From Candidatus Limnocylindrales bacterium (lineage in GTDB: Bacteria > Desulfobacterota > Binatia > UBA1149 > CAITLU01), in the NCBI GenBank assembly GCA_035571835.1, contig DATNBU010000017.1:106687-170686 (forward strand): a stretch of DNA of 64,000 nt, in the 5' to 3' direction. Position 1 is the first letter of the stretch. Every line of letters starts with the position of its first letter. Both the position numbers and the translations under genes were made by a program. The notes beneath the pieces are model-generated. The model saw only the letters and a list, made by a program, of their open reading frames with translations, had not been told where the DNA came from and did no database searches. This document shows, piece after piece, positions 1 through 22,321 of this stretch.

Positions 1-1896
1 GCGGATCCGCTCGGCGGCTTTGCCGCGATCACCGAACGGCTCCGGTCGGAAGAGCCCCCGCTCGCCACGCGCGACGGCGTCTTTACGACGCCGGACGGAA
101 AGTACGCGGTGCTGTTTCTCGCCACGCGCAGCTCCGCGTTCGACTCGTTCGCGCAAAGGCCGCTGCTCGATGCGATCCGCCGGACGTTCGACGAGCAGCG
201 AGCGCTCCTCGGGCCCGACCTCGTGCTCGAACAGAGCGGCGCCAACCGCTTTTCGATCGACGCGGAGAACAAGATCCGCGGCGACGCATCGCTGATCTCG
301 ACGCTCTCCGGCATCGGCGTCGCCGCGCTGTCGCTGCTGTTCTTCCGTTCGCTGATCTCGCTCGCGATCGTGACGATACCGGGCGTCGCGGGCCTGCTCT
401 TCGCGCTCGCGGCCGGCCTGTTCTTCTTCGGCCGTCTCGACGGCATGACGATCGCGTTCGGCGCTTCGCTGATCGGCGTGACCATCGATTATCCGACGCA
501 CGTGCTGATCCTGTGGAGCCTGTCGAAGTCCGGCGAGACGCCGTGGCAGGTCACGCGCCGGCTTGCCGGATCCCTTTCGATGGCCGCGCTGACGACGATG
601 GCAAGTTTTGCCGGGCTTGCCTGGACGTCGTTCCGCGGCTTCCGCGAGCTCGGCTGGTTCGCGGTGCTCGGCGTCGCCGGTGCGCTCGTGGCATCGCTGC
701 TGCTGCTGCCGGATCTCTTGCCGCGCCGGCGCAGGATCCAGCCGGTTTCCGAAGGGCTCGCGAACGTCCTCGGTCCGTGGCTGGTCCGCCTTCGCGAGCG
801 GCGCATGGTGCTCGCGCTGGCGCCAATCGCGATCGTGATCGTCGCGGCATTCGCGCTGCCGAAGCTCGCATGGAACGACGATCTCTCGCGCATCTCGTCG
901 CCCGATCCGGTGCTCAAGGCAGAGGACGACCGCGTGCGCGAGCGCGTGTCGAACTTCGACCCGGGCCGCTTCGTGATTGCTGCCGGCAACGACGCTGCGG
1001 CGATGCTCGAGCGCAACGAACAGGTCCATGCGCGGCTCGAGAAGCTGGTTCGCGAAGGAAAGCTCGGGGGCATGCGCTCGCTGCACGCGCTGCTGTGGCC
1101 CGAGTCGCTGCAGCGGCGCAATCTCGAGGTGCTGCGCGCAAGTCCCGATCTTCCGCGCCGGCTAGACGCCGCGTTCGTGCACGAAGGGTTCCGGCCGCAG
1201 TCGTTCGCGCCGTTCGCCGAGATGCTCGCGAATCCGCCGCCGCCGCTCGACCTCGCCACGCTTCGCGCGTCGGCGCTCGGACCGCTGGTGAGCTCGCTCG
1301 TGCTCGACCTCGGCGACCGCGTCGCGGCCATCACGTATCTGCGCGGCGTGCGCGACGCCGACGCGGTGCGTGCCGCGCTCGGCGATCTTCCCGACGTGAC
1401 GTTCTTCGAGCAGCGCACGTTCCTCAACGACATCTTCGCGCACTTCCGAAACCAGACGCTGCGCCTCGTCGTCGTCGGCACCGTGCTCGTCTACGTGCTG
1501 CTGCTCGTGCGCTACCGCCACTGGCGGAGCGCCACCGCGGCGTTCCTTCCCGCGCTGCTCGTGCCGGTCGTGCTGCTGTCGGGCTTCGCGCTGGCCGGCG
1601 TCGAGACCAACCTGCTGCACGCGGTCAGCCTGCTGATGGTGATGGGCATGGGAGTCGACTACGGCATCTTCATCGTCGACACCGCGCGCGACGACGAGGC
1701 CGAGGTCGGCGCGACGCTGGTGTCGTGCCTTTTGTGCTGCCTGACGACGATCCTGTCGTTCGGCACGCTCGCGATCTCGAGCCAGCCGCCGCTGCGCGCG
1801 ATCGGCATCACGACCGGTGCCGGCGTTGCGCTGTCGCTGCTGTTCGCTCCGATCTCGCTGCTTCTGCTGAGCGTCAAATCGCGGTCGCAGCGGTAG
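1..1896 (+). CDS. MMPL/RND-superfamily predicted exporter (5' end outside window)
   Basis: Frame 1 is open from nt 1 into ORF 109..1896. Two hydrophobic halves have typical MMPL/SSD transmembrane patterning (e.g. GMTIAFGASLIGVTIDYPTHVLILW and MVMGMGVDYGIFIVD). Exporters of this type are standard in aryl-polyene/xanthomonadin clusters. Confidence 0.8.
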   Translation, partial: ADPLGGFAAITERLRSEEPPLATRDGVFTTPDGKYAVLFLATRSSAFDSFAQRPLLDAIRRTFDEQRALLGPDLVLEQSGANRFSIDAENKIRGDASLISTLSGIGVAALSLLFFRSLISLAIVTIPGVAGLLFALAAGLFFFGRLDGMTIAFGASLIGVTIDYPTHVLILWSLSKSGETPWQVTRRLAGSLSMAALTTMASFAGLAWTSFRGFRELGWFAVLGVAGALVASLLLLPDLLPRRRRIQPVSEGLANVLGPWLVRLRERRMVLALAPIAIVIVAAFALPKLAWNDDLSRISSPDPVLKAEDDRVRERVSNFDPGRFVIAAGNDAAAMLERNEQVHARLEKLVREGKLGGMRSLHALLWPESLQRRNLEVLRASPDLPRRLDAAFVHEGFRPQSFAPFAEMLANPPPPLDLATLRASALGPLVSSLVLDLGDRVAAITYLRGVRDADAVRAALGDLPDVTFFEQRTFLNDIFAHFRNQTLRLVVVGTVLVYVLLLVRYRHWRSATAAFLPALLVPVVLLSGFALAGVETNLLHAVSLLMVMGMGVDYGIFIVDTARDDEAEVGATLVSCLLCCLTTILSFGTLAISSQPPLRAIGITTGAGVALSLLFAPISLLLLSVKSRSQR

Positions 1897-2013
1897 CCAC
1901 TCGGTCTAAATCGACACTCAACTTCCCTTGAGGTAAAGTGTTGTGAAAACATGGCTGCTCTCCTGCGTTGCTGAAGACTCCGTACTGGACGAGTCGGCCG
2001 AGGGGCCGACGAG

Positions 2014-2823
2014 ATGGGCCAGTGGGTCAAGAAAGAATACAGCAACAAACGGATCAACGATGCCGCGGCACAACTTGCGCCTTGGTGGCTTCGTCCAGAC
2101 CGCTCCGCTGCAGACGCAATGGCAGAGGCATACGACGTCGTCGATAACTGGCGGGCTTCACACTCCTTTCCCCTCAACCACTTCCAAGATTCACTGAGGA
2201 AACGGTCACGAAAGGTCGATTCGAATGTCATCGTAGCGCGGCGGCTTAAACGCATGCCGTCCGTGTTAGCAAAGCTCGCTAGGTCTCCCTACCCGGTGAC
2301 AACTATGCAGGATCTAGGCGGCTGTCGCGCGATATTAGGCTCTATGCGTGAGGTTAACGCTGTCCTCGACACATTTATTGGTGAGCCGTCCCTATTTCCG
2401 CTGGAAGGGACTCCGCGTCATTACAATTACATACAGAAACCAAAAGCAGACGGTTATCGAGGTATTCACATCGTTGGCCGCTACAAAGCCAAGTCGCAGC
2501 AAACAAGCTTTTGGAGTGGGTATAGGATTGAGATTCAACTCAGGACCGTCCTGCAGCACGCGTGTTCGACAGCCGTTGAAACAGTCGCGACATTTACTGG
2601 GTTTCCACTCAAATTCGGCAAAGGACCGGATGACTGGAAGCGGTTTTTTGTGCTCGCCTCTTCTGCCTTCGCGATTCTCGAGCGCAGCCCCCTCTGCCCG
2701 GGAGCCCCTGAAGACTCCGAAGAAGATACAGCCTCGACCGCTCCCCTCCCCTTCGTCGTCGGGTCTTTCCCCGCTCGGAGCGCCGCCGAAGCGCCGGACG
2801 TTTACGGTGCCTGGCTCCCTTAA
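2014..2823 (+). CDS. RelA/SpoT-domain nucleotidyltransferase, stand-alone small-alarmone-synthetase-like (toxSAS-like), 269 aa
   Basis: Synthetase-fold motifs are present in canonical order: basic ATP-binding stretch RRLKRMPSVLAKLAR, DLGGCRAIL (the DxxGxR-type G-loop), NYIQKPKADGYRGIHIV, and the diagnostic EIQLRT. No HD hydrolase domain. A GAGGGG RBS-like purine run lies 8-13 nt upstream. The gene sits in the low-GC island. Confidence 0.75.
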   Translation: MGQWVKKEYSNKRINDAAAQLAPWWLRPDRSAADAMAEAYDVVDNWRASHSFPLNHFQDSLRKRSRKVDSNVIVARRLKRMPSVLAKLARSPYPVTTMQDLGGCRAILGSMREVNAVLDTFIGEPSLFPLEGTPRHYNYIQKPKADGYRGIHIVGRYKAKSQQTSFWSGYRIEIQLRTVLQHACSTAVETVATFTGFPLKFGKGPDDWKRFFVLASSAFAILERSPLCPGAPEDSEEDTASTAPLPFVVGSFPARSAAEAPDVYGAWLP

Positions 2824-3099
2824 AAGCTGAGTCATCATGACTCCCACAGTACATGTTCGTGAAGGATCAGATCGTCGCAAACCTTCTGACCCGGAGACTA
2901 CGGCGGCTTGATGACCGGCGGGCGGCCTGCCCCGGAGTCGGATCGTCGTATGGCAATGCGGCCCCCAGGTGCCTTGCCGACGCCCACAACTGGCCCGGCC
3001 AAGGGGCTTCGGGTTTCTCTTAAGTTGGCCACAGCAGTATGGATCTCAGTAGGTGGTTTTTATCGCACAGGGGACGTATTCCAGCTATGAATCCTGTAC

Positions 3100-3140
3100 A
3101 TTACTTGCCAGCAGTGGCCTTGGCATATATAGAGGCGCGT
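3100..3140 (+). promoter_or_regulatory. Putative sigma70-like promoter (TTGCCA-N15-TATATA) with overlapping TGCCA-N10-TGGCA inverted repeat
   Basis: Read directly in the AT-richer spacer between the RelA/SpoT-like gene and the small ORF. Spacer length is suboptimal (15 nt). Confidence 0.2.
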
Positions 3141-3176
3141 TGACTCTCGCCGACTCGGGCGCATAGGGAAACCGCA

Positions 3177-3362
3177 ATGACCTCCAAGACTGTAATCTAC
3201 TCAAGTCCGCGTCTAGCTGAAGCGGTTGGGAAGAAGAGCGCCACTGCGCAGCAGGGATCATTCGAGGTGCAGATTCGTCGGGTCAGGGATGTGCCAAGAT
3301 ACCTGCGGCGACTCCGGGAAATGAAGGACAGCGCGAAGCATAGCGTTCTGCTCTTCCGTTAG
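3177..3362 (+). CDS. Hypothetical small basic protein (61 aa), candidate cognate partner/antitoxin of the adjacent RelA/SpoT-like gene
   Basis: ORF with a GGGAAA RBS-like sequence 6 nt upstream of ATG, preceded by the candidate promoter. Arg/Lys-rich C-terminus (RRVRDVPRYLRRLREMK). No recognisable family. Confidence 0.3.
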   Translation: MTSKTVIYSSPRLAEAVGKKSATAQQGSFEVQIRRVRDVPRYLRRLREMKDSAKHSVLLFR

Positions 3363-3390
3363 CCCCTCACCCTCCGCGTCTCCTCCTCTC

Positions 3391-4986
3391 ATGCCGCAGC
3401 CATCGTCCGCTCCGCGGCTATCCCCTTCCCTCACTTGCCGCGTCCATTCGATGGCGCGTCCTTTTTCAAATTTCGACTACGTCGAATCCCACTATCAGCG
3501 GGAACCCGCCATTCGTCGCATATTCTCGCAAGCACGAATGCATCATGCCCAATCCTTCGCGGTCGAGGACATCGAAGCAGACGGACTGGTCGCTGACGAA
3601 AACGCGGAAATCCATTCGTTCCTGGCGTCCTACCAAATGACAGGCCTGCAGCGTCTCTCGTTCTGGACCGCTCCCAATGACGCTGTAGAGAATGGAAATA
3701 TCAACAGCGAAAATCTTGTCGGATACGCCGTCGTCAAAAAAGACAGAGTTCCGTCACGACAGAGTCTTGCAAATGGATCATGGCATGTTTTCGAGTCGGT
3801 AATTCGGAAATACCCGGATCGACACAATTACATACCAGCCAATCCCAAATTCCCCGTAGTTTTCGGAACCAGACAGTTCCAGCTGCAAGGGGCTCTCTAT
3901 TGCCAACAAAACGGTTTGAACAAATCTTGTGCTCAGGTCGCGATTCGAAGTTTACTAGCCACGATCTCACCTGAACTCGATATTTCGTATTCGCAGTTGA
4001 ACGCGATCGCTCGCAACTATCCGCCGCTGACGCCAAGCGAAGGGCTCAGCGTTCAACAGATTAGTGGAATATTTGATAAGCTAGGAATGAAATATACGGC
4101 AATCGAATACGGTGAAGACGAATCGAGTAGCGGTGGTAGTGACAGTCCAACTGATCGCGCGGCCTTCCCTTACCAGAAGTTTCTTTACGCGGGAGTCGAG
4201 GCTGGCGCCGGAGCGTTGCTTGGATTTCGGCGCGATGCGGCAGAGCCCGCCGAACGTTCTCATATCATCCCATTCTTCGGCCATACATTTAACAGCGATA
4301 CTTGGGTTGTGAATGCAGATTCTGGCTACTTCTCAATCGGCGAGGCAATACGATACATCCCCAGCGATGCTTGGGTGAACAGTTTCATCGGTCATGACGA
4401 TAACTACGGATCTAATTTCTGCGTTCCGCGTTTGTACGTAAAACCACAAAACGTAGGGTACGTGCTCGCACTGCATAAGGCAGGATTTGGAACTAGTGGT
4501 ATTGAGGCCGAAGCAATAGGGAGTGAGTACGTTTATGCGCTACTGGGCGTAGAGACGATTAAGGATTCAACAAATCCTTGGCTCAGAAGGCTAGTCGCTT
4601 TTGCGGACCAACAGCGCGTCGTAATACGTGCAGTACCACTTACTCGAGATGAATATGTGTCACATCTGAATGCTGCTCAGGACTGGGAATGGAATCGAGA
4701 GCACTCCTCTACGCGTGAAGTAATGAGAGCCCATCTACCGGAGCGACTTTGGATGATAGAGGTTTCTCTACCGGAACTCTTCCCAGCAAATCATCGAAAA
4801 CTGGGAAGCATACTATTGAATGGGGACGGAGAGTTCGGGGAAGATCTTGACCTCTCCGAGTTCGTCTTTGCCCAATTTCCTTCGATAATCGTCTTCGCTC
4901 GTGGCTTGAGCGCAGGTGGCACTCCGGAATTCACTTTCTCCGAGAGCAACCTCAAATCACATATCCCGGTTTATCCGGGCGAGTAA
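3391..4986 (+). CDS. Hypothetical protein, 531 aa, no recognisable family (possible papain/C39-like Cys-His core is speculative)
   Basis: Long uninterrupted ORF in the low-GC island with coding-like codon periodicity. Alternative in-frame starts at 3451 (MARPF) and further downstream. No convincing RBS at 3391, so the start is uncertain. Confidence 0.6.
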   Translation: MPQPSSAPRLSPSLTCRVHSMARPFSNFDYVESHYQREPAIRRIFSQARMHHAQSFAVEDIEADGLVADENAEIHSFLASYQMTGLQRLSFWTAPNDAVENGNINSENLVGYAVVKKDRVPSRQSLANGSWHVFESVIRKYPDRHNYIPANPKFPVVFGTRQFQLQGALYCQQNGLNKSCAQVAIRSLLATISPELDISYSQLNAIARNYPPLTPSEGLSVQQISGIFDKLGMKYTAIEYGEDESSSGGSDSPTDRAAFPYQKFLYAGVEAGAGALLGFRRDAAEPAERSHIIPFFGHTFNSDTWVVNADSGYFSIGEAIRYIPSDAWVNSFIGHDDNYGSNFCVPRLYVKPQNVGYVLALHKAGFGTSGIEAEAIGSEYVYALLGVETIKDSTNPWLRRLVAFADQQRVVIRAVPLTRDEYVSHLNAAQDWEWNREHSSTREVMRAHLPERLWMIEVSLPELFPANHRKLGSILLNGDGEFGEDLDLSEFVFAQFPSIIVFARGLSAGGTPEFTFSESNLKSHIPVYPGE

Positions 4987-5017
4987 TCGTTCCGACAGCT
5001 AGGCATCACAACACCGC

Positions 5018-5773
5018 TCATTCCGAATCGCCCTGACGGTCCGCGGGCGCCGCAGGCCGCGGCTGCGCGAACAGCTCGGCGAGCTCCTGCTCGCTGAATC
5101 GGTGCTCGACGTCGGTTTTCCCGAACCGCGTCACGGTGCGGTCGCCGTCCGGCTCGACGGCTTCCATGCGGTCGACGTGCGCGCCGTGGCCGGTCATGTC
5201 GAAGTACGAGATCATGCGCTCGAGCGGCATCGAGCGCGGCGACAGGTGCAGGTGCCACTCGCTTCCGCCGGCCTGCGCATCGCCCGCATCGTGCGGCGTT
5301 TCGCTGTATTCGGCGCGGTAGAGCTCCTTCAGACGCGCCTCGTCGCCGTTGAACAGCACGACGAAGCTGTCGACGATCTGGCGCGCGATCGGGCTCGACG
5401 ACAGATCCAGCGCCTTGCTGCCGGTCGCTTCCTCCATGCGCACCTTGTCGCCGTCGACGACGAGTCGCGACCGCGACGGGCTCACGACGACGCGCACGAA
5501 ACGATGCGGCGGAATGAAGTAAATCGTCCCCGAAGATTCGAGCGGCGCCGACAGCAGCGCAAGCTCCTTCGTTTCGGTGAACTCGGCGACGACGCCGGGC
5601 GACGCGCGCATCGCCGACAGCATCGACGACAGATCGTGGACGGCCGCGGGCTCGGTCGCCGCGGCCGGCTCGGCCAGAGCGAGCGCAGCTGGTTCAATGC
5701 CGGCAAGGAATGCCGAGCCGCTGAAACCGAGTGCCGCGATCACGCCGCGAGCCGCCGCCGATAGCGCCGCCAT
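5018..5773 (-). CDS. LolA-like outer-membrane lipoprotein carrier family protein (aryl-polyene cluster type)
   Basis: ORF 5018..5938 trimmed to internal Met (MAALSAAARGVIAALGFSG signal-like N-terminus). Size (~250 aa) and position next to thioesterase/exporter match LolA-like proteins of APE clusters. Confidence 0.65.
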   Translation of the reverse strand: MAALSAAARGVIAALGFSGSAFLAGIEPAALALAEPAAATEPAAVHDLSSMLSAMRASPGVVAEFTETKELALLSAPLESSGTIYFIPPHRFVRVVVSPSRSRLVVDGDKVRMEEATGSKALDLSSSPIARQIVDSFVVLFNGDEARLKELYRAEYSETPHDAGDAQAGGSEWHLHLSPRSMPLERMISYFDMTGHGAHVDRMEAVEPDGDRTVTRFGKTDVEHRFSEQELAELFAQPRPAAPADRQGDSE

Positions 5774-5813
5774 TCGCGAAACCCAGGCCAGCCGTCGAAG
5801 CTCGAGCTGTTGC

Positions 5814-6224
5814 TCAGCCACCGATGCGCTCGACAATGCCGGGCGGCGTCTCCAGCAGCAGCCGTCCTTCGAGATCGGTGGTCGCAAGGATCGTGTGGCC
5901 GCGCGCCGCGCGCCGCCCCGTCGCGATGTTGGTGACATCGTAGAGGATCCGGATGCGATGGCGGAGGTCGCCGAACCACGCGGAGACGCGCACGTTGTCG
6001 CCGTAGCGAAGCGCGGACGTGTAGCGGCAGTGGCTCTCGACGATCACGAACCGGTAGCGCGGCCCGATGATGTCTCCGGAGTCGAGGCCGACGCTGCGCA
6101 GCAGTCGCGTGCGCGCGATCTCGAGGTACTTGTAATAGTGTCCGTGCCAGACGATGCCGAGCCCGTCGATGTCGTGAAACGGAACCTCGAGCTCGATCGA
6201 CGTCTCGCGCAGCTTGTCGGTCAT
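5814..6224 (-). CDS. 4-hydroxybenzoyl-CoA thioesterase-family (4HBT/YbgC-like hotdog) acyl thioesterase
   Basis: Hotdog-thioesterase pattern in MTDKLRETSIELEVPFHDIDGLGIVWHGHYYKYLEIART. The listed ORF (TTG at 6323) is trimmed to the internal ATG. Confidence 0.75.
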   Translation of the reverse strand: MTDKLRETSIELEVPFHDIDGLGIVWHGHYYKYLEIARTRLLRSVGLDSGDIIGPRYRFVIVESHCRYTSALRYGDNVRVSAWFGDLRHRIRILYDVTNIATGRRAARGHTILATTDLEGRLLLETPPGIVERIGG

Positions 6225-6246: not shown

Positions 6247-7827
6247 TCACGCAGGTCCGGGCTCGGGCAGCTCGAGATCGATCGGCAGACCGTCGCTGCG
6301 CAGCAGCTCGAGCACGGCCGCAATGTCGCCGTCCTGCCGGCGATCCTGCTCGAGTGGCGGCACGCGGCGCCGAACCGCGTCGTGCAGCGTCGCTACGGCT
6401 TCAGGGACCGAGCCGCCGCTTCGCATGCGGAGGTCGACGGCCTGGCACGCGGCCAGCAGCGTAATCGTTGCGACCGTTTCGGCGAGCTCGACCACGCGAC
6501 GGGCTTCGCGCGATGCGAGCGTACCCATGCTGACCTTGTCCTGGTTGTGCGACTCGGTGCTGCGGCTGAAGACCGCAGCGGGAAGACTCGTCTTGGCCGC
6601 TTCGGCCGCGAGCGCCGACGCCGTGATCTGCATGGCCTTGAACCCGTGATGCGACACGCGCGGCGATGCGACCAGATTGGCCGGAAGACCGCCGCTGGTC
6701 TCCGGCAGGCACAGCAGCACGAGCTGGCGGTCGAGGAGGTCGGCCGCCGAAGCCATCGCGCCCTTGAGCGCATCGAGCGCGAAGACGACGTGCCCGCCGT
6801 AGAAATTTCCGCCGTGCAGCACGCGGCCGGATTCGGGATCGATGACCGGATTGTCGTTGACGCCGGCGATCTCGATGTCGAGCACTCGCCTCGCGAGCGC
6901 GCATGCATCGACGAGCACGCCGAGCACGTGCGGAGCGCAGCGCACCGAATAGCGGTCCTGCAGGCGAAGCGGCTCCGGGCTGGGGCCGCCGGCGAGGAAC
7001 GCGCGGATCCAGCTTCCGACTTCGACCGTACCGGCATGCGGCTTGAGGCCGAGAACCGCGTCGTCGAAGTGCTCGGCGTTGCCGAGCGTGGCCGCGCTCG
7101 TCATCGCGGTGATCGCCGCCGCGAGCTTCGCGAGCCGCTCGGCGCGCACCAGCACGAGGCTCGCGATGCCGGCCATCACGCTGGTGCCGTTCATCAGCGC
7201 GAGGCTTTCCTTGGGAGCCAGCACGAGCGGTGCAATTCCGGCCGCGGCGAGCGCATCGCGCGCGGGCACCGTCTGACCGCTGACGACGGCTTCGCCTTCG
7301 CCCGCCAGCAGCCCGGCGACATACGCGAGCGGAGTCAGGTCACCGCTCGCGCCGACCGAGCCTTCTTCGGGAATTCGCGGCAGCACGCCGCGCGCGACCA
7401 GAAGCGCCAGATGCTCGAGCACCACCGGGCGGACCGCCGAGTAGCCGCGGGCAAGCGACGCGAGACGCACCGCAATGACCGCCGAGGCTTCGGTGGGGTC
7501 GAGGATTCGTCCGGTTCCGCAGCCGTGAAAGCGGAACAGGTTGCGGGCGAGATCGGCCTGCAGGTGCTCGGGGACATCGTTTTCGACCGATGCGCCGACG
7601 CCGGTGGAAACCCCGTAGACGGGTTCCCCGGCCGACAGGCATCGCTCGAGCACGGTGCGCCCGGCTTCGAGGCGGGCAAGGAATGCGGGGTCGGCGCTGA
7701 TCGCCGGCTCGGCCAGACCGAACGCGATCGAGACGACCTCGTCGACGCCGACCAGGTCCGACCCGAAGACGACGCGTGCTGCAGCCGGCACACCCGCCGC
7801 GGCTGCCTCGCTGGTACGGGCCGTCAT
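6247..7827 (-). CDS. Aromatic amino acid ammonia-lyase (HAL/TAL/PAL family) with MIO-forming Ala-Ser-Gly triad
   Basis: GSVGASGDLTPLAYVAG contains the ASG MIO precursor. Also MNGTSVMAG and NDNPVID motifs. Start trimmed to MTARTSEAAAAG (527 aa), a typical HAL/TAL size. Confidence 0.85.
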   Translation of the reverse strand: MTARTSEAAAAGVPAAARVVFGSDLVGVDEVVSIAFGLAEPAISADPAFLARLEAGRTVLERCLSAGEPVYGVSTGVGASVENDVPEHLQADLARNLFRFHGCGTGRILDPTEASAVIAVRLASLARGYSAVRPVVLEHLALLVARGVLPRIPEEGSVGASGDLTPLAYVAGLLAGEGEAVVSGQTVPARDALAAAGIAPLVLAPKESLALMNGTSVMAGIASLVLVRAERLAKLAAAITAMTSAATLGNAEHFDDAVLGLKPHAGTVEVGSWIRAFLAGGPSPEPLRLQDRYSVRCAPHVLGVLVDACALARRVLDIEIAGVNDNPVIDPESGRVLHGGNFYGGHVVFALDALKGAMASAADLLDRQLVLLCLPETSGGLPANLVASPRVSHHGFKAMQITASALAAEAAKTSLPAAVFSRSTESHNQDKVSMGTLASREARRVVELAETVATITLLAACQAVDLRMRSGGSVPEAVATLHDAVRRRVPPLEQDRRQDGDIAAVLELLRSDGLPIDLELPEPGPA

Positions 7828-8059
7828 CGTGCGACGTATAGGGCGGATACCGGCCCGAATCGAGCCGTCCGGGCCCGTCCGGGATGCGGCGCCACGAACG
7901 GCCGACGGCGGGCCGCAACTGATCGATTCGCGCGGTGCTGCAGGCCACAAACGCGCCGCAGGCCGTCGCGATCGGCCTTCGTTTTCCGCAGGAGATGAGG
8001 TATCGAAGCGGGTGGCAACGTCGCCAGGCGTCGACTGGTTCGAGGTGGAAACGAAAAGC

Positions 8060-13852: not shown

Positions 13853-14588
13853 ACCCACAACGGCAAGACGCGTGCTCGTCACCGGTGCCAGCGGCGGCAT
13901 CGGCCGTGCGATTGCCGTCGCGCTCGCCGGAGCCGGCTACGACGTCGTCGTGCATTACCATGCCAACGCCGAAGCGGCCCGCCGCACCGCAGACGAAGTG
14001 GCGGCCGTTCGCGGCGCCAGCCCCGTGCTCGTGCAGTTCGACGTCGCCGACCGCGAAGCGACAGCGGCTGCGCTCACCGATGAGATCCGCCAGCGCGGCG
14101 TGTTCTGGGGCATCGTGCTCAACGCCGGCATTCACGCCGACGCGCCCCTGCCGGCGATGAAAGGCGACGCGTGGGACCGGGTGCTGCGCACCAATCTCGA
14201 CGGCTTCTACAACGTCGCGCAGCCGCTGCTGATGCCGATGGTGCGACGCCATGACGGCGGCCGCGTCGTCGCGATCTCGTCGATTGCCGCGCTGGCCGGC
14301 AACCGCGGCCAGGCCAATTACGCCGCGTCCAAAGCCGGCATCATCGCGGCGTCGAAGTCTCTCGCGCAGGAAGTGGCCAAGCGGGGAATCACCGTCAACT
14401 GCGTTGCACCCGGCCTCATCGAAACCGACATGATCGCCGGCGCTCCAGTCGAGGAAATCGTAAAGAGAATCCCCATGCGCCGCCTCGGTCGGCCTGACGA
14501 AATCGCCGCCGCCGTTGCATTTCTGTTCTCGGACGGTGCAGCTTACATCACCGGACAGGTGATCTCCGTGAACGGAGGAATGCTGTGA
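13845..14588 (+). CDS. 3-oxoacyl-ACP reductase (FabG-like SDR)
   Basis: [11 protein letters not shown] Rossmann motif, NAG, and the YAASKAG catalytic Y-x3-K. Trimmed to [12 protein letters not shown]. Confidence 0.85.
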
Positions 14589-16147
14589 AGTGGGACGTGG
14601 CAATTCTCGGTGGCGGCTTCGCCGGCCAGCTCCTGGCGCGCCAGCTGACGCGCCAGACGCCCGGCCTTCGCATCGCCGTCTTCGAGAAGTCGACCGGCAC
14701 GTCGTTCAAGGTCGGTGAGGCCACCGTCGAGATCGCCGCCAACTATCTTGTGCGGCGCCAGGGCCTGCTGCGCTACCTGTACGACCGCCACTATCCGAAG
14801 AACGGCCTGCGCTACTTCTTCGACAATCCGCAGAAGTCGGCCCCGCTTCAGAGCATGAGCGAGATCGGGCCGATCAATTTTCCGTTTCATGCCGCGTTCC
14901 AGATCGATAGGGCACGCATCGAATCGGACCTGCGCGAGATGAACGCGGAGGCCGGCGTCGAGGTGCGGACCGGAGTGCGCGCGCTGCCGACCGATGTGCG
15001 CGACGACGGCGGGCTGCACACGATCACCGTCGAATCGGCGAGCGGAAGCGAGGTGCACGAGGCGCGCTGGGTCGTCGATGCCGCCGGGCGCGCGGACCTT
15101 CTGGCACGCGCCAAGGGTCTTCGCGTGCGCGAGAACGAGCATCGCCTCGGCGCGGTGTGGGGCCGCTTCGAGAACGTCGTCGACATCGACAGTCTCGGTC
15201 CCGACAGCTTCCACGAGCGAGTCCGCCATGCGACGCGCGGACTGTCGACGGTGCACTTCTGGTATCCCGGCTACTGGATCTGGTTCATTCCGCTGCGCGA
15301 CGGCATCACCAGCGTCGGCGTCGTGGGGCATCCGGTCACCGAGGTTCCCGGCATCCGCACGATCGAAGGCTTCCGCAAATTCCTCGACACGCACGGCGCG
15401 GTGCGGATGCTGCTTGCCGGCTCGCGGCCGGTCGACGTCGGCAGCTATTCGAACATGGCTTACAACACGAGCCAGTTCTTCAGCACCGGCCGCTGGGGAC
15501 TGGTCGGCGAGGCCGCCACTTCGGCCGACGCGCTGTACAGCCCCGGCAGCGACTTCATCGCCATCGAGAACGACATGCTCGCCGACCTGATCGCGCGCGA
15601 TGCCGGCGGCGAGCCGGCCGCCGAGCTCGCCGAGCGCACGCGCCTCTACAACGAGTTCATGCAGTTCCGCCAGGAAGCCACGCTCAACCTGTATCGCGGC
15701 CAGTACTCGACGTTCGGTAGCTTCGAGCTGACGCGCATGAAGTGGGATCTCGACATCGGCTCGTATTTCAACCTGTGGGTTACCGCGTACATGCAGGACC
15801 AGCATCTCGACCGCACGTGGCTCCGCAGCCAGCTGCGCATGCGGCCGCTGGTGCTGCAGGCGCTGGTCACGTTCGGAGACCTGTTTCGCGAGATCGCGCA
15901 GGTGCTGCGCGAGGAAGGCCGCTTCTACTCGAAAAACCTCGGCCAGTTCTCGTACGGGCTCGAGCGGATCGATTTCGTGCCCGAAGTCGGGCTGCCGCGC
16001 TCGCGCCGCCGCGTGCTCGAGAAGCAGACCGAGATTTTCAACTCGGTGCGCCGCAGCGCCGCCGAGCTGCTCGGACGTCCGGGCGATCCGGACGTGATCC
16101 CGTCGCTTCCGCTTTCCGCGTTCGTCGGGAACCAGCCGATTCTTTGA
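14585..16147 (+). CDS. Flavin-dependent halogenase
   Basis: GGGFAG FAD-binding motif and the halogenase-specific WxWxIP motif (GYWIWFIPL). GTG start overlaps the FabG stop (GTGA). Confidence 0.8.
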
Positions 16148-16158: not shown

Positions 16159-17058
16159 ATGCCGCTGCGGTCCGAACGACGCCCAGGAACGCAATCCGAC
16201 AGGCTCGAGCTCGACGACGCGCAGCGGGCCGTGCTCGACCGGCACGCTTCGGCAATCGCCGACCGGCATCATCCCGACGTTGCGCTGACCGCGTCGCACG
16301 TGTTCCGTCCTCCGAGCGACATGACCGCCGCGCAGGGACTCGGGCTGCTCGCGGCAATGGCGCTGGTGCTGCTGAGCGGGTTCGCAACCGGGCATCTCAT
16401 CGAAGCGTTCGGCGTGCGCGCCGCGGCCGTGCTGCTGTTTGCGCTCGCGACCGGCGCGTCCGTCGGCCTCGGCGGGATCTCGCTCGGCGGCGGGCGCCCA
16501 CTTTCGGTCGTCGAACGATTCGCGATCCTCGGCACTCTCACGCTTGCGATCGCCACCGGCGCAGCTGCTGCGATCGCGATGGTACCGGCAGTCGTCCATC
16601 TGCTCGTCGCGCGCGTGTTCGCGGCGAGTCTTCTCGACGACGAAACGCTGATCGAGAAGGCGGCGCGCATCGCGCACCCGCTCGCGCCGCCTTTCATCGC
16701 ACCGTACTGCCGCAAGCTCACAGCCGTCTGGGCCGGACTGTTCGCCGCGAGCGCGGTGATCACCGCAGTTCTCGCGATACGGGGGCTGCTCGACGCGCAT
16801 CGCGCGTGGACCGGCTGGATCTTCTGGACAGTGCTCGCGATCTTCTCGCTCGTGGAGTTCCTCTGGCGCAAGGCGTGGTTTCGCTACTACGGCCCGGGAC
16901 CGTTCGACCGATTCCTGTCGCGCGTGTTTCCGCCAGGCAATACGCCGCGCGGGCGGCGCTCGGCGGCGTACGTCGCAAGCATGCGCTCCGAGCTCGCCCG
17001 GCTTGCCGAAGCCAAGCGCACCGCGACGCGTAACGCGCGTCCACTCAACGAGCGCTGA
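16159..17058 (+). CDS. Integral membrane protein of unknown function (cluster-associated)
   Basis: Several hydrophobic helices after a ~50-aa soluble N-terminus. Immediately follows the halogenase in the same orientation. Confidence 0.5.
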   Translation: MPLRSERRPGTQSDRLELDDAQRAVLDRHASAIADRHHPDVALTASHVFRPPSDMTAAQGLGLLAAMALVLLSGFATGHLIEAFGVRAAAVLLFALATGASVGLGGISLGGGRPLSVVERFAILGTLTLAIATGAAAAIAMVPAVVHLLVARVFAASLLDDETLIEKAARIAHPLAPPFIAPYCRKLTAVWAGLFAASAVITAVLAIRGLLDAHRAWTGWIFWTVLAIFSLVEFLWRKAWFRYYGPGPFDRFLSRVFPPGNTPRGRRSAAYVASMRSELARLAEAKRTATRNARPLNER

Positions 17059-17409: not shown

Positions 17410-17676
17410 ATGAACTGGAACTCGAGCCAACGAAACCCGAACGAGTACAAGGGCGCAACCCGGCAGAGACTTCTTGCGATCCTCGCAGCGCAGGGTGTGC
17501 TGACCGAAGCTTTGCTGGCGAGGGCGCACGACAGCCCGGACGAGGATGTTCTCGAAATCGAGATCACCGAGTTCGAAGGATGTCTCGGTGGTGACACCGA
17601 CGACGAGGCGGACGAGCTCGATGACGACGAGCTCGACGACGAAGAAGAGGAAGAAGAGGAGGACGAGGAAGAATAA
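17410..17676 (+). CDS. Hypothetical hyper-acidic small protein (88 aa) with poly-Asp/Glu C-terminal tail
   Basis: AGGAGGA RBS 6 nt upstream of ATG (MNWNSSQRNPNEYKG). The C-terminus is DDEADELDDDELDDEEEEEEEDEEE. Confidence 0.5.
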   Translation: MNWNSSQRNPNEYKGATRQRLLAILAAQGVLTEALLARAHDSPDEDVLEIEITEFEGCLGGDTDDEADELDDDELDDEEEEEEEDEEE

Positions 17677-17731
17677 CCAACCGGAGCCGTTGCGATGCCG
17701 CCCGGCATCGGCGGGTCCCAAGGAGTAAACC

Positions 17732-17908
17732 ATGCTGCATTACGCGATCGTATTCTTCGTGGTCGCCCTGATTGCGGCCGTACTGGGATTCAACGGCGTC
17801 GCCGGCCTCTCGGCCAACATCGGGTGGCTGTTCGCGGTTCTGGCGCTCGTCTTTCTTGCCGTGGCCCTGCTTGGCGGGCGCGGCAGCTCCAATCTCCCCG
17901 CTCCGTAG
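17732..17908 (+). CDS. DUF1328/UPF0391-family small membrane protein (58 aa)
   Basis: Absent from the ORF track (shorter than 60 aa). AAGGAG RBS; sequence MLHYAIVFFVVALIAAVLGFNGVAGLSANIGWLFAVLALVFLAVALLGG matches the UPF0391 pattern. Confidence 0.6.
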   Translation: MLHYAIVFFVVALIAAVLGFNGVAGLSANIGWLFAVLALVFLAVALLGGRGSSNLPAP

Positions 17909-18090
17909 AAGGATGGCCAACAGGCTGCCGCAACTGCCGGGCTCGCGGATCGCGAGCATCCGGCAGGAGCGGGAGAAGCGGACACGCAGGGTCGTGTCTG
18001 CGCGGCGGGCGGGATGACCGTCCGCCGGGATCGACCGTGATGCGGCGGCTCTGCGAAAGCGGGGGCGTCGACTCACAAGGAGAACGTGAC

Positions 18091-19272
18091 ATGAGAAAGC
18101 TCAATTTTGACGGAAGGCTGAAAATGGCCGCTGCGGCTGCCCTGGTTGCGATCATGGTGGGGGCCGGCGCCGCCCACGCGGCCTCTCCGAACGACGCGTG
18201 GATCACCAGCAAGGCGAAGCTCGCGCTCATGACGACAGAAGGCGTCAGCTCGAACGCGATCAACGTCGACACCGTGGGACGCAAGGTGACGTTGCACGGA
18301 ACGGTAGCCACGAACGAAGAAAAGCAGAAGGCCGAGGAAGCGGTCCGTTCGATCGAAGGCGTGACCAGCGTCCGCAACCTTCTTCAGGTGACGTCGCAGA
18401 AGCAGAGCGCGTCTGTCGCGCGCGCGGACGACCAGATCACCACGGATGTGCGTGCCGCGCTTGCCCGCCAGAAAGCGCTCGATGACAGCACGATCACGGT
18501 TGCGTCCGTGAACAAGGGCGTCGTCCTGCTTTCGGGCAAGGCCGACGACATGACCGACAAGCTCACGGCCGTGCGTACGGCGCGCAGCGTGCCGGGCGTG
18601 CGCCGCGTGTCGAGCGAGATCGAAGGCCCCGACACGATCGCGGACACACGCGACCCGCGTGACGAAACGTACGCCGAGCCCGGGCACAAAAGCGTGACCG
18701 ACAGCGCACGCGATACGGCAAAGTCCGCGGGCGAGACGGTCAGCGACACCGCGAAATCAGCGGGTCATGCCGTCAAGAACGCGGCGAAGTCGACCGGTGA
18801 GGTCGTCTCCGACACGACGAAGTCGGCCACCGGCGTAGCCAGCGACATGTACACGACGTCGATGGTCAAGATGCGGCTGCTTGCCGACCGCGAAACGCCG
18901 GCGCTCGACATCAACGTCGACACCGACGACGGCGTCGTGACGCTGTTCGGCATCGTTCCGAGCGCCAATGCGAAGGCGCAGGCCGCGGCCGAGGCAAAGA
19001 AAGTCGCCGGCGTGAAGAACGTCCGCAACGAGCTTCAGGTCGTCGCCGAAGCGAAGCAGGAAAACGTCAAGGCCAGCGACCAGGAAGTCGCTTCGGACGT
19101 GAAGCAGAAGCTGCGCGAGAATGACCTCGACAACGTCAGCGTGGATGTGAAGAACTGCATCGTGCGCCTGACCGGCAAGGTGCCGTCGCGGCAGGAACGC
19201 ATCGAAGCCATGCAGGTTGCGCGTGCGGCACGCGGCGTGTGTGCGGTCGAGAACGACCTGCGCTTCCAGTAA
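18091..19272 (+). CDS. Periplasmic BON-domain protein (OsmY-like), three BON domains plus internal TAKSAG repeats
   Basis: AAGGAG RBS and an N-terminal signal peptide. Repeated VGRKVTLHGTV / KGVVLLSGK / DGVVTLFGIV / NCIVRLTGKV BON cores. Confidence 0.8.
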   Translation: MRKLNFDGRLKMAAAAALVAIMVGAGAAHAASPNDAWITSKAKLALMTTEGVSSNAINVDTVGRKVTLHGTVATNEEKQKAEEAVRSIEGVTSVRNLLQVTSQKQSASVARADDQITTDVRAALARQKALDDSTITVASVNKGVVLLSGKADDMTDKLTAVRTARSVPGVRRVSSEIEGPDTIADTRDPRDETYAEPGHKSVTDSARDTAKSAGETVSDTAKSAGHAVKNAAKSTGEVVSDTTKSATGVASDMYTTSMVKMRLLADRETPALDINVDTDDGVVTLFGIVPSANAKAQAAAEAKKVAGVKNVRNELQVVAEAKQENVKASDQEVASDVKQKLRENDLDNVSVDVKNCIVRLTGKVPSRQERIEAMQVARAARGVCAVENDLRFQ

Positions 19273-19284
19273 GCCGGCGGAGCC

Positions 19285-19300
19285 CCGCGCGCTCGCGCGG
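19285..19300. terminator. Short GC hairpin (CCGCGCG-CT-CGCGCGG) between convergent OsmY-like and CLF genes
   Basis: Read directly. No U-tract, so only a weak terminator candidate. Confidence 0.2.
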
Positions 19301-19308
19301 TGATGGAA

Positions 19309-20097
19309 TCAGCGGGACGCGGACGCGGTGTCCGCGTCCCGCTGCCACCACCATTCCCTTCCATTTCCTTTCAGCACGAGCCCCGCTTCTTCCGACAGCA
19401 TCCAGCGAACGAATTCGGCTGCATCCGACCAGCCGCGCCGCAGCGCCTCGTCCGCTGCGACCGCCGTTCCCGGCTTCGCGGGTTGTTCGTCGCCGCGCAC
19501 GCCGAACCGCACGGCCGTGCCTTCGCCGGATGACGCGAGCACCAGGGCCACCGAGTAGACGGCCGGAGGATCGTCGATCAACGAAGCAAACGCTTCGGCC
19601 AGCGTCACGTCGCCCATCACCAGCAGCACCGGCCGCTCGGGCTCGCGGTGAAGATGCGTCGCGGCTTCGAGGAACCCGCACGCGAAGCTTTCCGCCCGCG
19701 CGGACAGCGCGCTCGACGCATGCCGGTTTCCGACTGCGATCGAGAACAGACCCGACTGCGCGTTGTGTACGGTGTGGGTGAAGCGCGACGGCGACATCTT
19801 CTCGTCGTACGCAATGTTGCGAAGCAGCGGGACCGACTCGTTGATGCTGCCGTAACGCGAGGCAAAGACCGTGCGCACGCTCGACGCGGCAATTCCGCTC
19901 GTCGCGCCGTACGCCGCAGTCAGCATCGCGCGCGACAGCGTCGTGCAGCGGCGGCGGATCATCGCGGGCACGGCGCGCGCATCCGGAGCACCGTCGTCGC
20001 GCAGCGGCGCCGGCGACGCAGCCCACTCTTGCCACGCTTCGCGGCTTTCGAGCCCCGGCGCCCACGCCGACCAGTCCCGGACAACGGCGCGAATCAA
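19309..20097 (-). CDS. Ketosynthase chain-length-factor-like protein (KS N-terminal-domain protein without active-site Cys)
   Basis: TTG start in TTGA overlap with the KS stop. N-terminal WSAWAPGL motif typical of aryl-polyene CLFs. Central HTVHNAQSG but no TACSSG-type active site. Confidence 0.6.
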   Translation of the reverse strand: MIRAVVRDWSAWAPGLESREAWQEWAASPAPLRDDGAPDARAVPAMIRRRCTTLSRAMLTAAYGATSGIAASSVRTVFASRYGSINESVPLLRNIAYDEKMSPSRFTHTVHNAQSGLFSIAVGNRHASSALSARAESFACGFLEAATHLHREPERPVLLVMGDVTLAEAFASLIDDPPAVYSVALVLASSGEGTAVRFGVRGDEQPAKPGTAVAADEALRRGWSDAAEFVRWMLSEEAGLVLKGNGREWWWQRDADTASASR

Positions 20098-21311
20098 CTT
20101 CCGACCTCCGGACCGTGCGAGAACACCAGCGTGCAGTTGTTGCCGCCGAAACCGAACGAGTTGCTCATGACGTGGCACGTCTCGCCCGTGACCGCGCGGC
20201 GACCATCGCCGGCGAAATCGAGGCGCGGAAGCGCGGGGTCGGCGACGCCGTCCCAGCGGTGCGGCGGCAACACGAGCTCGCGGGCCGCGCGATGAAGGAG
20301 GATCTCCGCGCAGAACGCCGCTTCGGTTGCGCCGGCCGCGCCGAGCGTGTGGCCGGTCAGCGGCTTGGTCGAGCTGGCCGGCACGCGATCCTCGAACAGC
20401 GTCCAGATTGCGCGGCATTCCATCGCATCGTTGGCCGGAGTGCCGGTGCCGTGGATGTTGAGATACGAGATGTCGCCGGGCGCGAGGCCCGCATCGGCAA
20501 GCGCACCGCGCATCGCGGCGAGAGCGCCGGCGCCGTCGGGATCCGGCGCCGACATATGGTGCGCTTCGCTCGACTCGCCGACTCCCGTCAGCTGTACGCC
20601 GCCGCTCTCGCGCGTGACCAGGAAGAACGCGGCAGCCTCGCCGAGCGTGATTCCGCAGCGGTTGACGCTGCACGGATTGGTCAGCTCCTCGCAGATCAGC
20701 CCGAGCGAGCTGAAGCCGCTCGAAGTGAGGCCGCAGATGGTGTCGGCCGCGCCGCACACGACGGCGTCGGCAACGTCCATCTCGAGCAGCGACCTCGCCG
20801 ACGCGAGCGCACGCGCACCGGACGAGCAGGCCGTCGACAGCGTGAACGCCGGACCGGTCGTGCCGAGCCACGACGCGACAAACTCGGCGATACCGCCGAA
20901 CTCGAGCTGCGCGGCGCGAAACCGGCGCGGCAGCGAGCCGGTGCGCTCGCGATGGCGGATGGCTTCTTCGGCATCTCCCACACCGGACGTGCTCGTGCCG
21001 GCGACGACGGCGATGCGCCCGCGCCCGAAACTGCGGATCGCATCCTCGATCGGCGCGCGGATCTGCGAGAGCACTGCGGCAACCAGGCGGTTGTTGCGAC
21101 AGTCGTACTCGGCCATCGAAGGATCGAGCACCGGAAAGTCCGCGTCGATCATTCCGACGAGGATCTCACGGTCGGGAGCGAGGCCGCGGCGGCGGACGAA
21201 GCGGCTGGTATCGCCGCCCGCAAGGCGCGGCCAGATCTCGGCGATACCGGCGCCGAGGTTGTTCGCCATCGCGATCGCAGACAGGCGGCATGCGCGAGGC
21301 CGGCCGGTCAT
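20094..21311 (-). CDS. Beta-ketoacyl-ACP synthase (KS)
   Basis: Active-site TACSSG, HGTGT and GHTLGAAG motifs. Confidence 0.85.
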   Translation of the reverse strand: MTGRPRACRLSAIAMANNLGAGIAEIWPRLAGGDTSRFVRRRGLAPDREILVGMIDADFPVLDPSMAEYDCRNNRLVAAVLSQIRAPIEDAIRSFGRGRIAVVAGTSTSGVGDAEEAIRHRERTGSLPRRFRAAQLEFGGIAEFVASWLGTTGPAFTLSTACSSGARALASARSLLEMDVADAVVCGAADTICGLTSSGFSSLGLICEELTNPCSVNRCGITLGEAAAFFLVTRESGGVQLTGVGESSEAHHMSAPDPDGAGALAAMRGALADAGLAPGDISYLNIHGTGTPANDAMECRAIWTLFEDRVPASSTKPLTGHTLGAAGATEAAFCAEILLHRAARELVLPPHRWDGVADPALPRLDFAGDGRRAVTGETCHVMSNSFGFGGNNCTLVFSHGPEVGS

Positions 21312-22321
21312 TTCCGGTTTTTCTCTGCGGCGCGATCCGGTCCCGCCGATGGTGCGTTGCCCGTCCCAGGCTCAGGAAATGTTTCCGGCGTGTCGGTTGG
21401 TGAAGACGGCGGCGGCGCGGGATCGTTCCTGTGTACGGCCGCCTCGTGCGCCGCAAGATTGGCTTCGGCGCCGACCGGTACCATTTCTTTCGACGACAGC
21501 CAGACCCAGCCGATCGCGATGCCGCCCATGAATGCGCTGTCGCTGCCGACGAGAGGGCTGTTTTCGAACGCCGCGCCGGCAAGATTCGTATAGCGCGCGA
21601 AGATGCCGACGTAGAACGGTCCGAAATAACGGCTCACGCCGGTGGAGATACGAAACCCCGCGTATCCGCCGTTCGGGTTGTACGCGCGGCGGCTCGGCGT
21701 CTCGAACTGCGGCGCCACGCCGTAGATGTATTCGTTGTATTCGTTGTTGCTGAATTCCAGGCCCGCGTTGGCCTCCACGCGGTAGACGTCCGGCTCGAAC
21801 CGGTACTGCAGCTTCGGGCTCGCAACCAGCCCTTCGTACGCGAAGTTGTCGAGATCGACGGCGAGCGCCGTGCGCAGCGGAACGTCGACGTCGAGCACGT
21901 GACGGCCGTTCTCGCTCATCGCAACGCGGAATTTCACGGTCGGCCCGATCTGCGCGATCCAGTCGAGATCGTGCATCCCGTGACGGCGGTCGTTGTCGTC
22001 GCTGTCGACCGAAACCTGGCCGCCGGCCGACAGGTCGAGCCGCACGAGGTCGGTTCCGAAGATCCGCGTCTGCATCGATTCGCGGTCCAGGCGCAGCCGC
22101 GAGCCGCGATAGATCACCCACGGAAACGGGATCGGATGGAAGCGGTACTCGTCCGAGCCGACGTAATCGGGCTGCGTGTAGAAGACGCTGCCGACTCCGA
22201 GCTCCCACTTCGGGCGGGTCTCGGCCGACGCGCGGTCGCAGGCAATCGCGCCGACCATCACGGAAACGGTAACGATCGACCACGAACGCAGCGACAGAGC
22301 CCGACGGGAAGGGAATTTCAC
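21308..22321 (-). CDS. MipA/OmpV-family outer membrane protein
   Basis: Signal peptide and beta-barrel-like alternating pattern with repeated aromatic-ended strands. ATGA overlap with the KS start implies co-translation with KS/CLF. Confidence 0.65.
   Translation of the reverse strand: MKFPSRRALSLRSWSIVTVSVMVGAIACDRASAETRPKWELGVGSVFYTQPDYVGSDEYRFHPIPFPWVIYRGSRLRLDRESMQTRIFGTDLVRLDLSAGGQVSVDSDDNDRRHGMHDLDWIAQIGPTVKFRVAMSENGRHVLDVDVPLRTALAVDLDNFAYEGLVASPKLQYRFEPDVYRVEANAGLEFSNNEYNEYIYGVAPQFETPSRRAYNPNGGYAGFRISTGVSRYFGPFYVGIFARYTNLAGAAFENSPLVGSDSAFMGGIAIGWVWLSSKEMVPVGAEANLAAHEAAVHRNDPAPPPSSPTDTPETFPEPGTGNAPSAGPDRAAEKNRK

Follow-up and report, generated by a model that had tools for sequence, protein, structure and literature searches.

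We analysed a stretch of 64,000 nucleotides from contig DATNBU010000017.1 (hereafter the window), which belongs to a metagenome-assembled genome (MAG) labelled Candidatus Limnocylindrales bacterium and contains, from its first nucleotide onwards, a gene cluster related to the ape clusters that direct the synthesis of aryl polyene (APE) lipids. The initial annotation had described positions 1-22321 as a "flexirubin-xanthomonadin-type" pigment cluster, that is, an APE-type cluster resembling a type II polyketide synthase (PKS) system, with an ammonia-lyase that supplies the starter and a flavin-dependent halogenase. The G+C content of the window is ~67%, and consequently raw lists of open reading frames are full of spurious frames; genes were called with a codon-usage score, and the coordinates agree with the gene calls of ENA assembly ERZ27256655, contig k141_2541243 (317 kb). 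Domains were assigned by Pfam and NCBIfam scans, and the ape cluster of Escherichia coli CFT073 served as the reference for pairwise protein comparison. For the functions of the Ape proteins and the APE lipid structure we draw on PMC8253772, PMC8358021 and bioRxiv 10.1101/2020.12.19.423268. The cluster consists of the following genes, listed with the matches on which each assignment is based.

1-1896, plus strand: ApeM-like exporter of the MMPL/RND type (Pfam MMPL and HpnN-like NCBIfam matches; 25% identity to ApeM over 560 aa, E 1.7e-25)
5018-5773, minus strand: ApeL-like periplasmic carrier of the LolA family (PF19574, LolA_3; 24% identity to ApeL, E 1e-6)
5814-6224, minus strand: ApeK-like 4HBT (YbgC-type) thioesterase (PF13279, E 4.5e-14; 34% full-length identity to ApeK, E 6.5e-29)
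6247-7827, minus strand: aromatic amino-acid ammonia-lyase dependent on 4-methylideneimidazol-5-one (MIO) (PF00221, E 8.5e-150, 500 bits)
8012-8965 (start at 8012 or 8255), plus strand: ApeD-like lysophospholipid acyltransferase of the PlsC family (PF01553, E 7.3e-18; 38% identity to ApeD, E 1.7e-32)
8952-9221, plus strand: acyl carrier protein (ACP) 1, ApeE-like, presumed carrier of the starter (NF006617, 93 bits, cut-off 70; 43% identity to ApeE)
9226-9474, plus strand: ACP 2, ApeF-like, presumed malonyl carrier (NF003757, 66.5 bits, cut-off 65; 42% identity to ApeF)
9497-11449, plus strand: ApeH-like enzyme for adenylation of an aryl acid and loading of the ACP, fused to an ApeI-like dehydratase (AMP-binding, AMP-binding_C and ApeI-like domains)
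11453-12256, plus strand: GT2 glycosyltransferase corresponding to the N-terminal half of ApeJ (PF00535; 39% identity to ApeJ residues 8-243, E 1.3e-61)
12367-13314, plus strand: LpxL-like acyltransferase corresponding to the C-terminal half of ApeJ (PF03279; 30% identity to ApeJ residues 259-549, E 1.4e-35)
13304-13852, plus strand: ApeP-like hot-dog dehydratase (PF22817, 27.7 bits, cut-off 27; 26% identity to ApeP, E 6e-11)
13845-14588, plus strand: ApeQ-like 3-ketoacyl-ACP reductase (KR) of the FabG type (FabG models; 53% identity to ApeQ, E 6.6e-90)
14585-16147, plus strand: flavin-dependent halogenase (PF04820)
16159-17058, plus strand: ApeG-like integral membrane protein of 299 aa (family profile against E. 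coli ApeG: hhalign probability 98.5%, E 1.5e-15)
19309-20097, minus strand: ApeC-like chain-length factor (CLF) (PF13723, E 2e-48; 27% identity to ApeC, E 3e-20)
20094-21311, minus strand: ApeO-like elongating ketosynthase (KS) (NF006618, 462 bits, cut-off 407; 42% identity to ApeO compared to 29% to ApeR)
21308-22258, minus strand: outer-membrane protein of the MipA family, given as co-transcribed with the KS and CLF genes (PF06629, E 1.2e-33)

Every item of the gene inventory that the initial annotation had drawn up for positions 1-22321 was found by the domain scans and the comparison with E. coli CFT073, including the MIO lyase (PF00221, with an intact GASGD triad) and the halogenase with its WxWxIP motif. 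One-to-one matches exist for 14 of the 18 Ape proteins of E. coli CFT073, namely ApeC, D, E, F, G, H, I, J, K, L, M, O, P and Q, where the match to ApeG was obtained with hhalign and the 299-aa protein in question has no Pfam match. This homology, together with a KS and CLF that are nearest to ApeO and ApeC, bears out the assignment to the APE-type, type II PKS-like clusters. The set of proteins for lipid attachment and export is represented by D, J (as two genes), K, G, L and M, and a gene of the DUF3261 family (the ApeN family) is located just upstream of the window. The pairwise comparison with CFT073 yielded no counterpart of ApeR, ApeB or ApeA.

The catalytic motifs of these proteins are intact. 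The PlsC-like enzyme has intact NHPTLVD and FPEGTRS motifs, the LpxL-like enzyme has an intact motif of the HX4D type (HQGSFD), the KR has its catalytic Tyr/Lys pair, and the DSID serine is present in both ACPs, which are the reciprocal best matches of ApeE (ACP 1) and ApeF (ACP 2). The ligase fusion corresponds to ApeH in residues 57-503 (30% identity over 454 aa, E 2.5e-37) and to ApeI in residues 556-650 (33% identity, E 6.9e-9; the match to the Pfam ApeI-like family, at 25.4 bits, is just under the cut-off). It contains the motifs TSGTSGPGK and GRADR..K, its top NCBIfam match is the 4-coumarate-CoA ligase model TIGR02372, below cut-off, and its role as a ligase is predicted from homology.

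The KS and CLF resemble the ApeO-ApeC pair rather than FabF, and the grouping with FabF that the initial annotation had raised as a possible objection was not seen. Among solved structures, the KS is matched best by 6QSP_A (302 bits), followed by 7F28_B (259 bits), compared to at most 142 bits for FabF, and against the FabF model TIGR03150 the protein scores 170 bits where the cut-off is 494. The KS contains the Cys-His-His residues in intact TACSSG, HGTGT and GHTLG motifs. The only significant PDB matches of the CLF are 6QSP_B (E 2.8e-20) and 7F28_A, that is, the ApeC chains, and the CLF and KS genes share an overlap of 4 nt. The structure 6QSP is the ApeO-ApeC complex of Xenorhabdus doucetiae, and 7F28 is cited in the paper reporting the ApeO-ApeC structure of Acinetobacter baumannii (PMC8358021).

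The lyase carries the MIO triad as GASGD at residues 158-162 and the catalytic tyrosine as Tyr71; the triad, the tyrosine and an NQD motif are invariant in the lyase orthologues wherever these positions could be read. Its scores against the curated models are 404 bits for histidine ammonia-lyase (HAL; cut-off 524), 390 for BagA-type tyrosine ammonia-lyase (TAL; cut-off 1000), 325 for tyrosine 2,3-aminomutase (cut-off 501), 291 for FlxA (NF053541, cut-off 700) and 288 for phenylalanine ammonia-lyase (PAL; cut-off 519), so that none of the curated functional lyase models is reached. The protein is in the same family as FlxA, but it is not an equivalog. Residues that determine the substrate were read from an alignment with RsTAL (sequence checked against PDB 2O6Y) that is free of gaps from the catalytic tyrosine onwards. 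At the substrate switch, Phe100-His101 of the lyase correspond to His89-Leu90 of RsTAL and to Ser92-His93 of the tyrosine aminomutase SgTAM. As a rule, TALs have His at the first of these positions and PALs have Phe or His, and HALs have Glu where TALs and PALs have Gln (PMC3992019). A role in histidine utilisation was considered and rejected: the lyase is not a HAL because Gln stands in its NQD motif, there are no hut genes nearby, and the gene is conserved within the cluster. Among 31 orthologues in related loci the switch pair is F-H in 22, and M-L, L-H, M-H or Y-H in the rest.

The halogenase has the GxGxxG motif as GGGFAG at residue 9, Lys72, and the WxWxIP motif as WIWFIP at residue 231. 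Lys72, WxWxIP and ~130 other positions are invariant among 25 halogenase homologues (56-100% identity), and GGGFAG is likewise invariant; these proteins therefore form a conserved, functional clade. Every significant PDB match is a flavin-dependent halogenase, with CmlS, a chain of 3E1T (which we take to be CndH of Chondromyces) and PltA at the top, and Lys72 and WxWxIP align with their counterparts in CmlS. Substrates in the CmlS/CndH/PltA group are tethered to a carrier or are small phenols and pyrroles. The best plasmid-borne relative of the halogenase is a Janthinobacterium protein with 32% identity, which is encoded beside a type I PKS and not in an APE cluster, and is uninformative.

Related loci were collected by scanning the GTDB species representatives with the halogenase alignment as the query; the AMP-ligase protein alone, used as the query in a contig scan, recovered no relative. 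The halogenase scan yielded 79 loci, all of them from MAGs and mostly labelled Myxococcota, Deltaproteobacteria or Binatia. In 40 of the 79 loci the halogenase is accompanied by the ligase, GT2, LpxL-like acyltransferase, dehydratase and KR genes in identical order; the ApeG-like gene follows the halogenase in 32 of these 40, the lyase is found inside the cluster in 27, and most of the loci without a lyase end at that point. Two loci have the lyase on the opposite side of the cluster. The lyase is thus frequent, but not obligatory, in the family, and its position, and perhaps its presence, varies.

The closest analogues among known systems fall into four groups. The ape clusters of E. coli CFT073 and X. 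doucetiae (ApeA-R, APE lipids) have in common with the window cluster the local order D-E-F-H-I-J and the export set G, L, M and N. The window cluster differs in that it lacks ApeR, the ApeB methyltransferase and ApeA, has ApeH and ApeI fused and ApeJ split in two, keeps the KS-CLF pair in a separate convergent operon, and adds the MIO lyase, the flavin halogenase and MipA; its starter is presumably a cinnamic-type acid, compared to 4-hydroxybenzoate in theirs. The ape cluster on the megaplasmid of Ralstonia solanacearum (CP009763.1, 391-410 kb), a complete cluster from a cultured bacterium that came up in the plasmid collection, also has an embedded lyase of the same clade, 51% identical to the one described here, with the common motif R[FY]HGCG and a Tyr-His switch, as well as an ApeH::ApeI-type fusion, a KS with 49% and a KR with 52% identity. 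Unlike the window cluster it retains ApeR, has an additional KS as well as a methyltransferase, and keeps ApeJ fused, and there is no MipA in its annotated cluster. An FAD enzyme at the end of the Ralstonia cluster (419 aa, with WxWxIP as WYWMIP) is of a different, shorter family with 24% identity to the window halogenase, and it is probably also a halogenase, judging from this motif. In strain OE1-1 this FAD oxidoreductase occupies positions 25267-26526 of the extracted megaplasmid locus. We found no publication on the product of the Ralstonia cluster in the open-access literature, where it appears in antiSMASH-level mentions only.

The other two groups gave the initial annotation its name. 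The flexirubin pathway of Chitinophaga pinensis and Flavobacterium johnsoniae (PMC3992019) is similar in its lyase-supplied aryl starter, activation by an AMP-ligase, type II polyene synthesis and known chlorinated derivatives, and it is the system in which priming of an aryl polyene by a tyrosine lyase is established. In contrast, the window cluster lacks the dialkylresorcinol genes DarA and DarB (no KS-III or DarA-like gene was detected in Pfam scans of the window or its flanks), its ligase is ApeH-like and not a free-standing 4-coumarate-CoA ligase, and its anchor genes are of the ape type. The scores of the window lyase (291 bits, cut-off 700), LolA-like protein (43 bits, cut-off 125; flexirubin LolA2 model of NCBIfam) and KR (263 bits, cut-off 340) are far below the curated flexirubin models. 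The xanthomonadin and arcuflavin clusters of Xanthomonas, Lysobacter and Azoarcus (PMC3691225, PMC3949708) resemble the window cluster in having one KS-CLF pair, along with a halogenase, an outer-membrane protein of the MipA type, a glycosyltransferase and acyltransferases, an exporter and a LolA-like protein; the MipA gene (arcC) and the halogenase are listed for the arcuflavin cluster of Azoarcus, which is primed with 3-hydroxybenzoate (PMC3949708). The resemblance to the xanthomonadin halogenase is judged from the presence of the gene and its adjacency to KS-CLF (Fig. 5 of PMC3691225). In place of XanB2, the chorismatase that provides 3-hydroxybenzoate, the window has the lyase, and Pfam and NCBIfam scans of the window and the 10 kb upstream detected no XanB2, DarA/B or methyltransferase. 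Consequently, the aryl-polyene reading of the initial annotation holds wherever sequence can test it, but the cluster is neither flexirubin proper, because the dialkylresorcinol genes are absent and the lyase, LolA and KR are so far below the flexirubin models, nor xanthomonadin proper, because there is no XanB2. Each unusual feature of the cluster has a precedent: a lyase-derived starter in flexirubin and, at the genomic level, in Ralstonia; halogenation in flexirubins as well as in xanthomonadins; and the fusion of ApeH with a dehydratase in A. baumannii (PMC8358021).

Homology, catalytic motifs and conserved synteny lead us to regard it as likely that the region encodes an ape-type APE lipid pathway of the kind found in E. 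coli, Xenorhabdus and Ralstonia, with a cinnamic-type starter made by the lyase and with halogenation of the product. The pathway would begin with deamination of an aromatic amino acid by the MIO lyase to a cinnamic-type acid, more probably tyrosine to 4-coumarate, with phenylalanine to cinnamate as the possible variant. The ApeH-like domain would adenylate this acid and load it on the ApeE-like ACP without a CoA intermediate, and the ApeO/ApeC-like KS-CLF heterodimer would extend it with malonyl units carried by ACP 2. In each round, reduction by the ApeQ-like enzyme followed by dehydration by the pair of the ApeI domain and ApeP would introduce a trans double bond, so that a conjugated polyene, the presumed pigment, is built up. 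The flavin halogenase is predicted to add chlorine or bromine, probably on a carrier-bound substrate. The lyase substrate, the chain length, the halide, when and where halogenation takes place, and the anchor are all inferred. The chromophore would then be attached to its putative anchor, a glyco(phospho)lipid, by the thioesterase, the two acyltransferases (PlsC-like and LpxL-like) and the GT2 glycosyltransferase, and ApeG, ApeM, ApeL, the DUF3261 (ApeN-family) protein and perhaps MipA would place the product in the outer membrane. A polyene primed with coumarate is of the same type as one primed with 4-hydroxybenzoate (4-HBA), with one extension fewer; the product expected is therefore a halogenated analogue of the known APE lipids and no new scaffold.

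Several observations weigh against this pathway. The cluster comes from an uncultured MAG and is known from its genes alone, it includes no flavin reductase or phosphopantetheinyl transferase gene, and no ApeR, that is, no second KS, was detected in Pfam and NCBIfam scans of the window and the 10 kb upstream. We treat ApeR as accessory: neither synthesis in vitro nor pigment formation requires it (PMC8253772, PMC8358021), and its lack weighs less because the ApeO-ApeC pair of A. baumannii alone builds the full polyene in vitro (PMC8358021). On the same side are three observations on the lyase, each of which belongs to an alternative. One is the residue at the position of RsTAL His89, which is Phe and thus resembles PAL under the Watts rule (as given in PMC3992019), with the His one residue later, as in SgTAM and HAL. 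If the lyase were specific for phenylalanine, the polyene would have an unsubstituted phenyl head, and the target of the halogenase would be either the polyene chain or a ring that an enzyme encoded elsewhere had hydroxylated. The alignment of Phe100 with a position that is Phe in many PALs, and the predominance of F-H among the orthologues (22 of 31), are in line with this possibility. However, flavin halogenases require an activated ring. Moreover, His101 corresponds to His93 of SgTAM, which is specific for tyrosine and has a Ser-His switch, and Tyr-His is found in the Ralstonia orthologue; the head groups described for APEs are all hydroxy- or methoxy-phenyl (PMC3691225, PMC3992019, bioRxiv 10.1101/2020.12.19.423268). 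The Phe-His switch, as a sequence feature, is ambiguous between tyrosine and phenylalanine. We slightly favour tyrosine as the substrate because of the ring chemistry of the halogenase, the described head groups and the SgTAM-type histidine, and we consider a phenylalanine-specific lyase somewhat unlikely.

The second observation concerns four Myxococcota-type loci in which LolA (in one of them LolA and the thioesterase gene) directly adjoins the PlsC-like acyltransferase and no lyase intervenes. The absence of the lyase at its usual place would be expected if the cluster were primed with a hydroxybenzoate, as the APE and xanthomonadin-type clusters of E. coli, Xanthomonas and Azoarcus are, and the lyase were a passenger or part of another pathway. 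The remaining machinery is indeed the same as in ape clusters primed with 4-HBA, and the Azoarcus cluster primed with 3-hydroxybenzoate has MipA and a halogenase as well (PMC3949708). We nevertheless find this improbable: a XanB2-type chorismatase is missing from the window and the 10 kb upstream; Ralstonia and MAGs of two phylum-level groups alike retain the lyase inside the cluster; the lyase has Gln and not the Glu of HAL, with no hut neighbours; and the best curated match of the ligase is the 4-coumarate-CoA ligase model, though below cut-off. The third observation is that the best PDB match of the lyase is the aminomutase SgTAM, at 265-267 bits compared to 221-224 for RsTAL, so that the enzyme might act as a 2,3-aminomutase, yielding a beta-amino acid, and the product of the cluster might not be a classical aryl polyene. 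The score against the tyrosine 2,3-aminomutase model (325 bits) is far under its cut-off of 501, no gene for a nonribosomal peptide synthetase or for the handling of beta-amino acids is nearby, and the other genes are all standard Ape components, which makes an aminomutase very improbable. The ape-type pathway with a lyase-derived starter remains our preferred reading.

The extent of the cluster differs from that given by the initial annotation, which had treated positions 1-22321 as one unit: the genes are as described, but the left edge does not hold and two unrelated insertions lie inside. The upstream continuation, the two insertions and the ApeG-like gene at 16159-17058 were all absent from that annotation. 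The left boundary at position 1 arises only from where the window was cut: the exporter gene begins 467 nt before position 1 and encodes 787 aa in full on the source contig; proceeding upstream from it, there are the DUF3261 gene, a second trio of GT2, LpxL-like and PlsC-like genes, and genes for a B12-binding radical-SAM protein, a NUDIX protein and an amine-oxidase/desaturase-like protein. The proteins of the upstream trio are only 26-30% identical to the copies in the cluster, and in relatives they match the in-cluster paralogues only. The trio and its neighbours may belong to the cluster as a second module for lipid tailoring, or they may form a lipid locus unrelated to it.

The two insertions are foreign and not part of the cluster. 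One is an island of low G+C content (55-60%, compared to 67%) at 1897-5017, between the convergent exporter and LolA-like genes; the other, at 17410-19272 between the ApeG-like gene and the CLF, holds three small genes of stress type. Their contents, with the island proteins also compared to PADLOC models, are as follows.

2014-2823, plus strand: RelA/SpoT-domain protein of 269 aa (PADLOC candidate defence model PDC-S33, E 1.8e-73)
3391-4986, plus strand: protein of 531 aa with no Pfam, NCBIfam or PADLOC match
within 17410-19272: acidic 88-aa protein with a poly-Asp/Glu tail; DUF1328 membrane protein; OsmY-like protein with four BON domains

Neither of the island genes is present in any of the 79 related loci, and Rfam, tRNA and repeat scans of positions 1-26000, including the island, detected no RNA gene, tRNA or convincing boundary repeats. 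The insertion at 17410-19272 is absent from the relatives as well. In the two closest loci with an intact junction, the ApeG-like gene and the CLF are separated by ~115-170 nt, and other relatives have different inserts of 1-5 kb at the same place; this junction between convergent operons looks like a hot spot of insertion. At the right end, MipA adjoins the KS in the four closest relatives, and a boundary at MipA is reasonable. Beyond it are genes for a 966-aa dockerin-like protein, a dienelactone hydrolase and MutS2, whose synteny extends only to the closest relatives, and the remaining window contains housekeeping genes. The 966-aa protein (22385-25285, minus strand) has only a weak dockerin-like match at its C-terminus; it is found beside MipA in the closest relatives (57-59% identity) and not in the Myxococcota loci.

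The NCBI label Candidatus Limnocylindrales (Chloroflexota), which is also carried by identical proteins ("MAG TPA: Candidatus Limnocylindrales bacterium"), is doubtful in view of the relatives of the cluster and its diderm envelope genes. The closest species-representative loci, with halogenase identities of 73-83%, are labelled Candidatus Binatia or uncultured Myxococcales. A diderm host near Binatia or Myxococcota is more plausible than a host from the Chloroflexota because the locus encodes envelope proteins of the LolA, MipA and OsmY types. The Limnocylindrales label is probably an artefact of binning or of taxonomy mapping.

APE clusters are considered the most widely distributed family of biosynthetic gene clusters in bacteria, and few of their products are chemically defined. 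The cluster described here, from an uncultured bacterium of soil or sediment, is an ordinary member of this family with an additional lyase and halogenase, and it is a reasonable natural-product lead but no surprise; it leaves the understanding of APE biosynthesis unchanged. Nevertheless, in the open-access literature we found no characterised APE that has a lyase together with a halogenase and no APE chemistry from Binatia or Myxococcota, which appear in antiSMASH-level mentions only. The locus, its ~40 relatives in Binatia and Myxococcota and the Ralstonia cluster indicate that ape-type clusters beyond the flexirubin producers carry a dedicated MIO lyase as a recurrent addition. We go further with a proposal on which we are evenly divided, namely that the R[F/Y]HGCG lyase clade in the ape clusters of Binatia, Myxococcota and Ralstonia represents an unrecognised starter route for APE lipids other than flexirubins, in which a cinnamic-type acid is made in situ and loaded on the ACP by the ApeH::ApeI fusion, without ApeR, and that the product of the MAG lineages is a halogenated APE lipid formed with an uncharacterised clade of 520-aa halogenases. 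The leads that follow are a lyase clade with an unusual Phe/Tyr-His switch, a distinct halogenase clade that probably acts on carrier-bound aryl polyenes, and an entry point in the culturable Ralstonia solanacearum. The interest of the locus is mainly in the enzymology of the lyase and halogenase and in the APE chemistry of uncultured phyla; if the proposal is true, APE lipids would occur in phyla without described APE chemistry.

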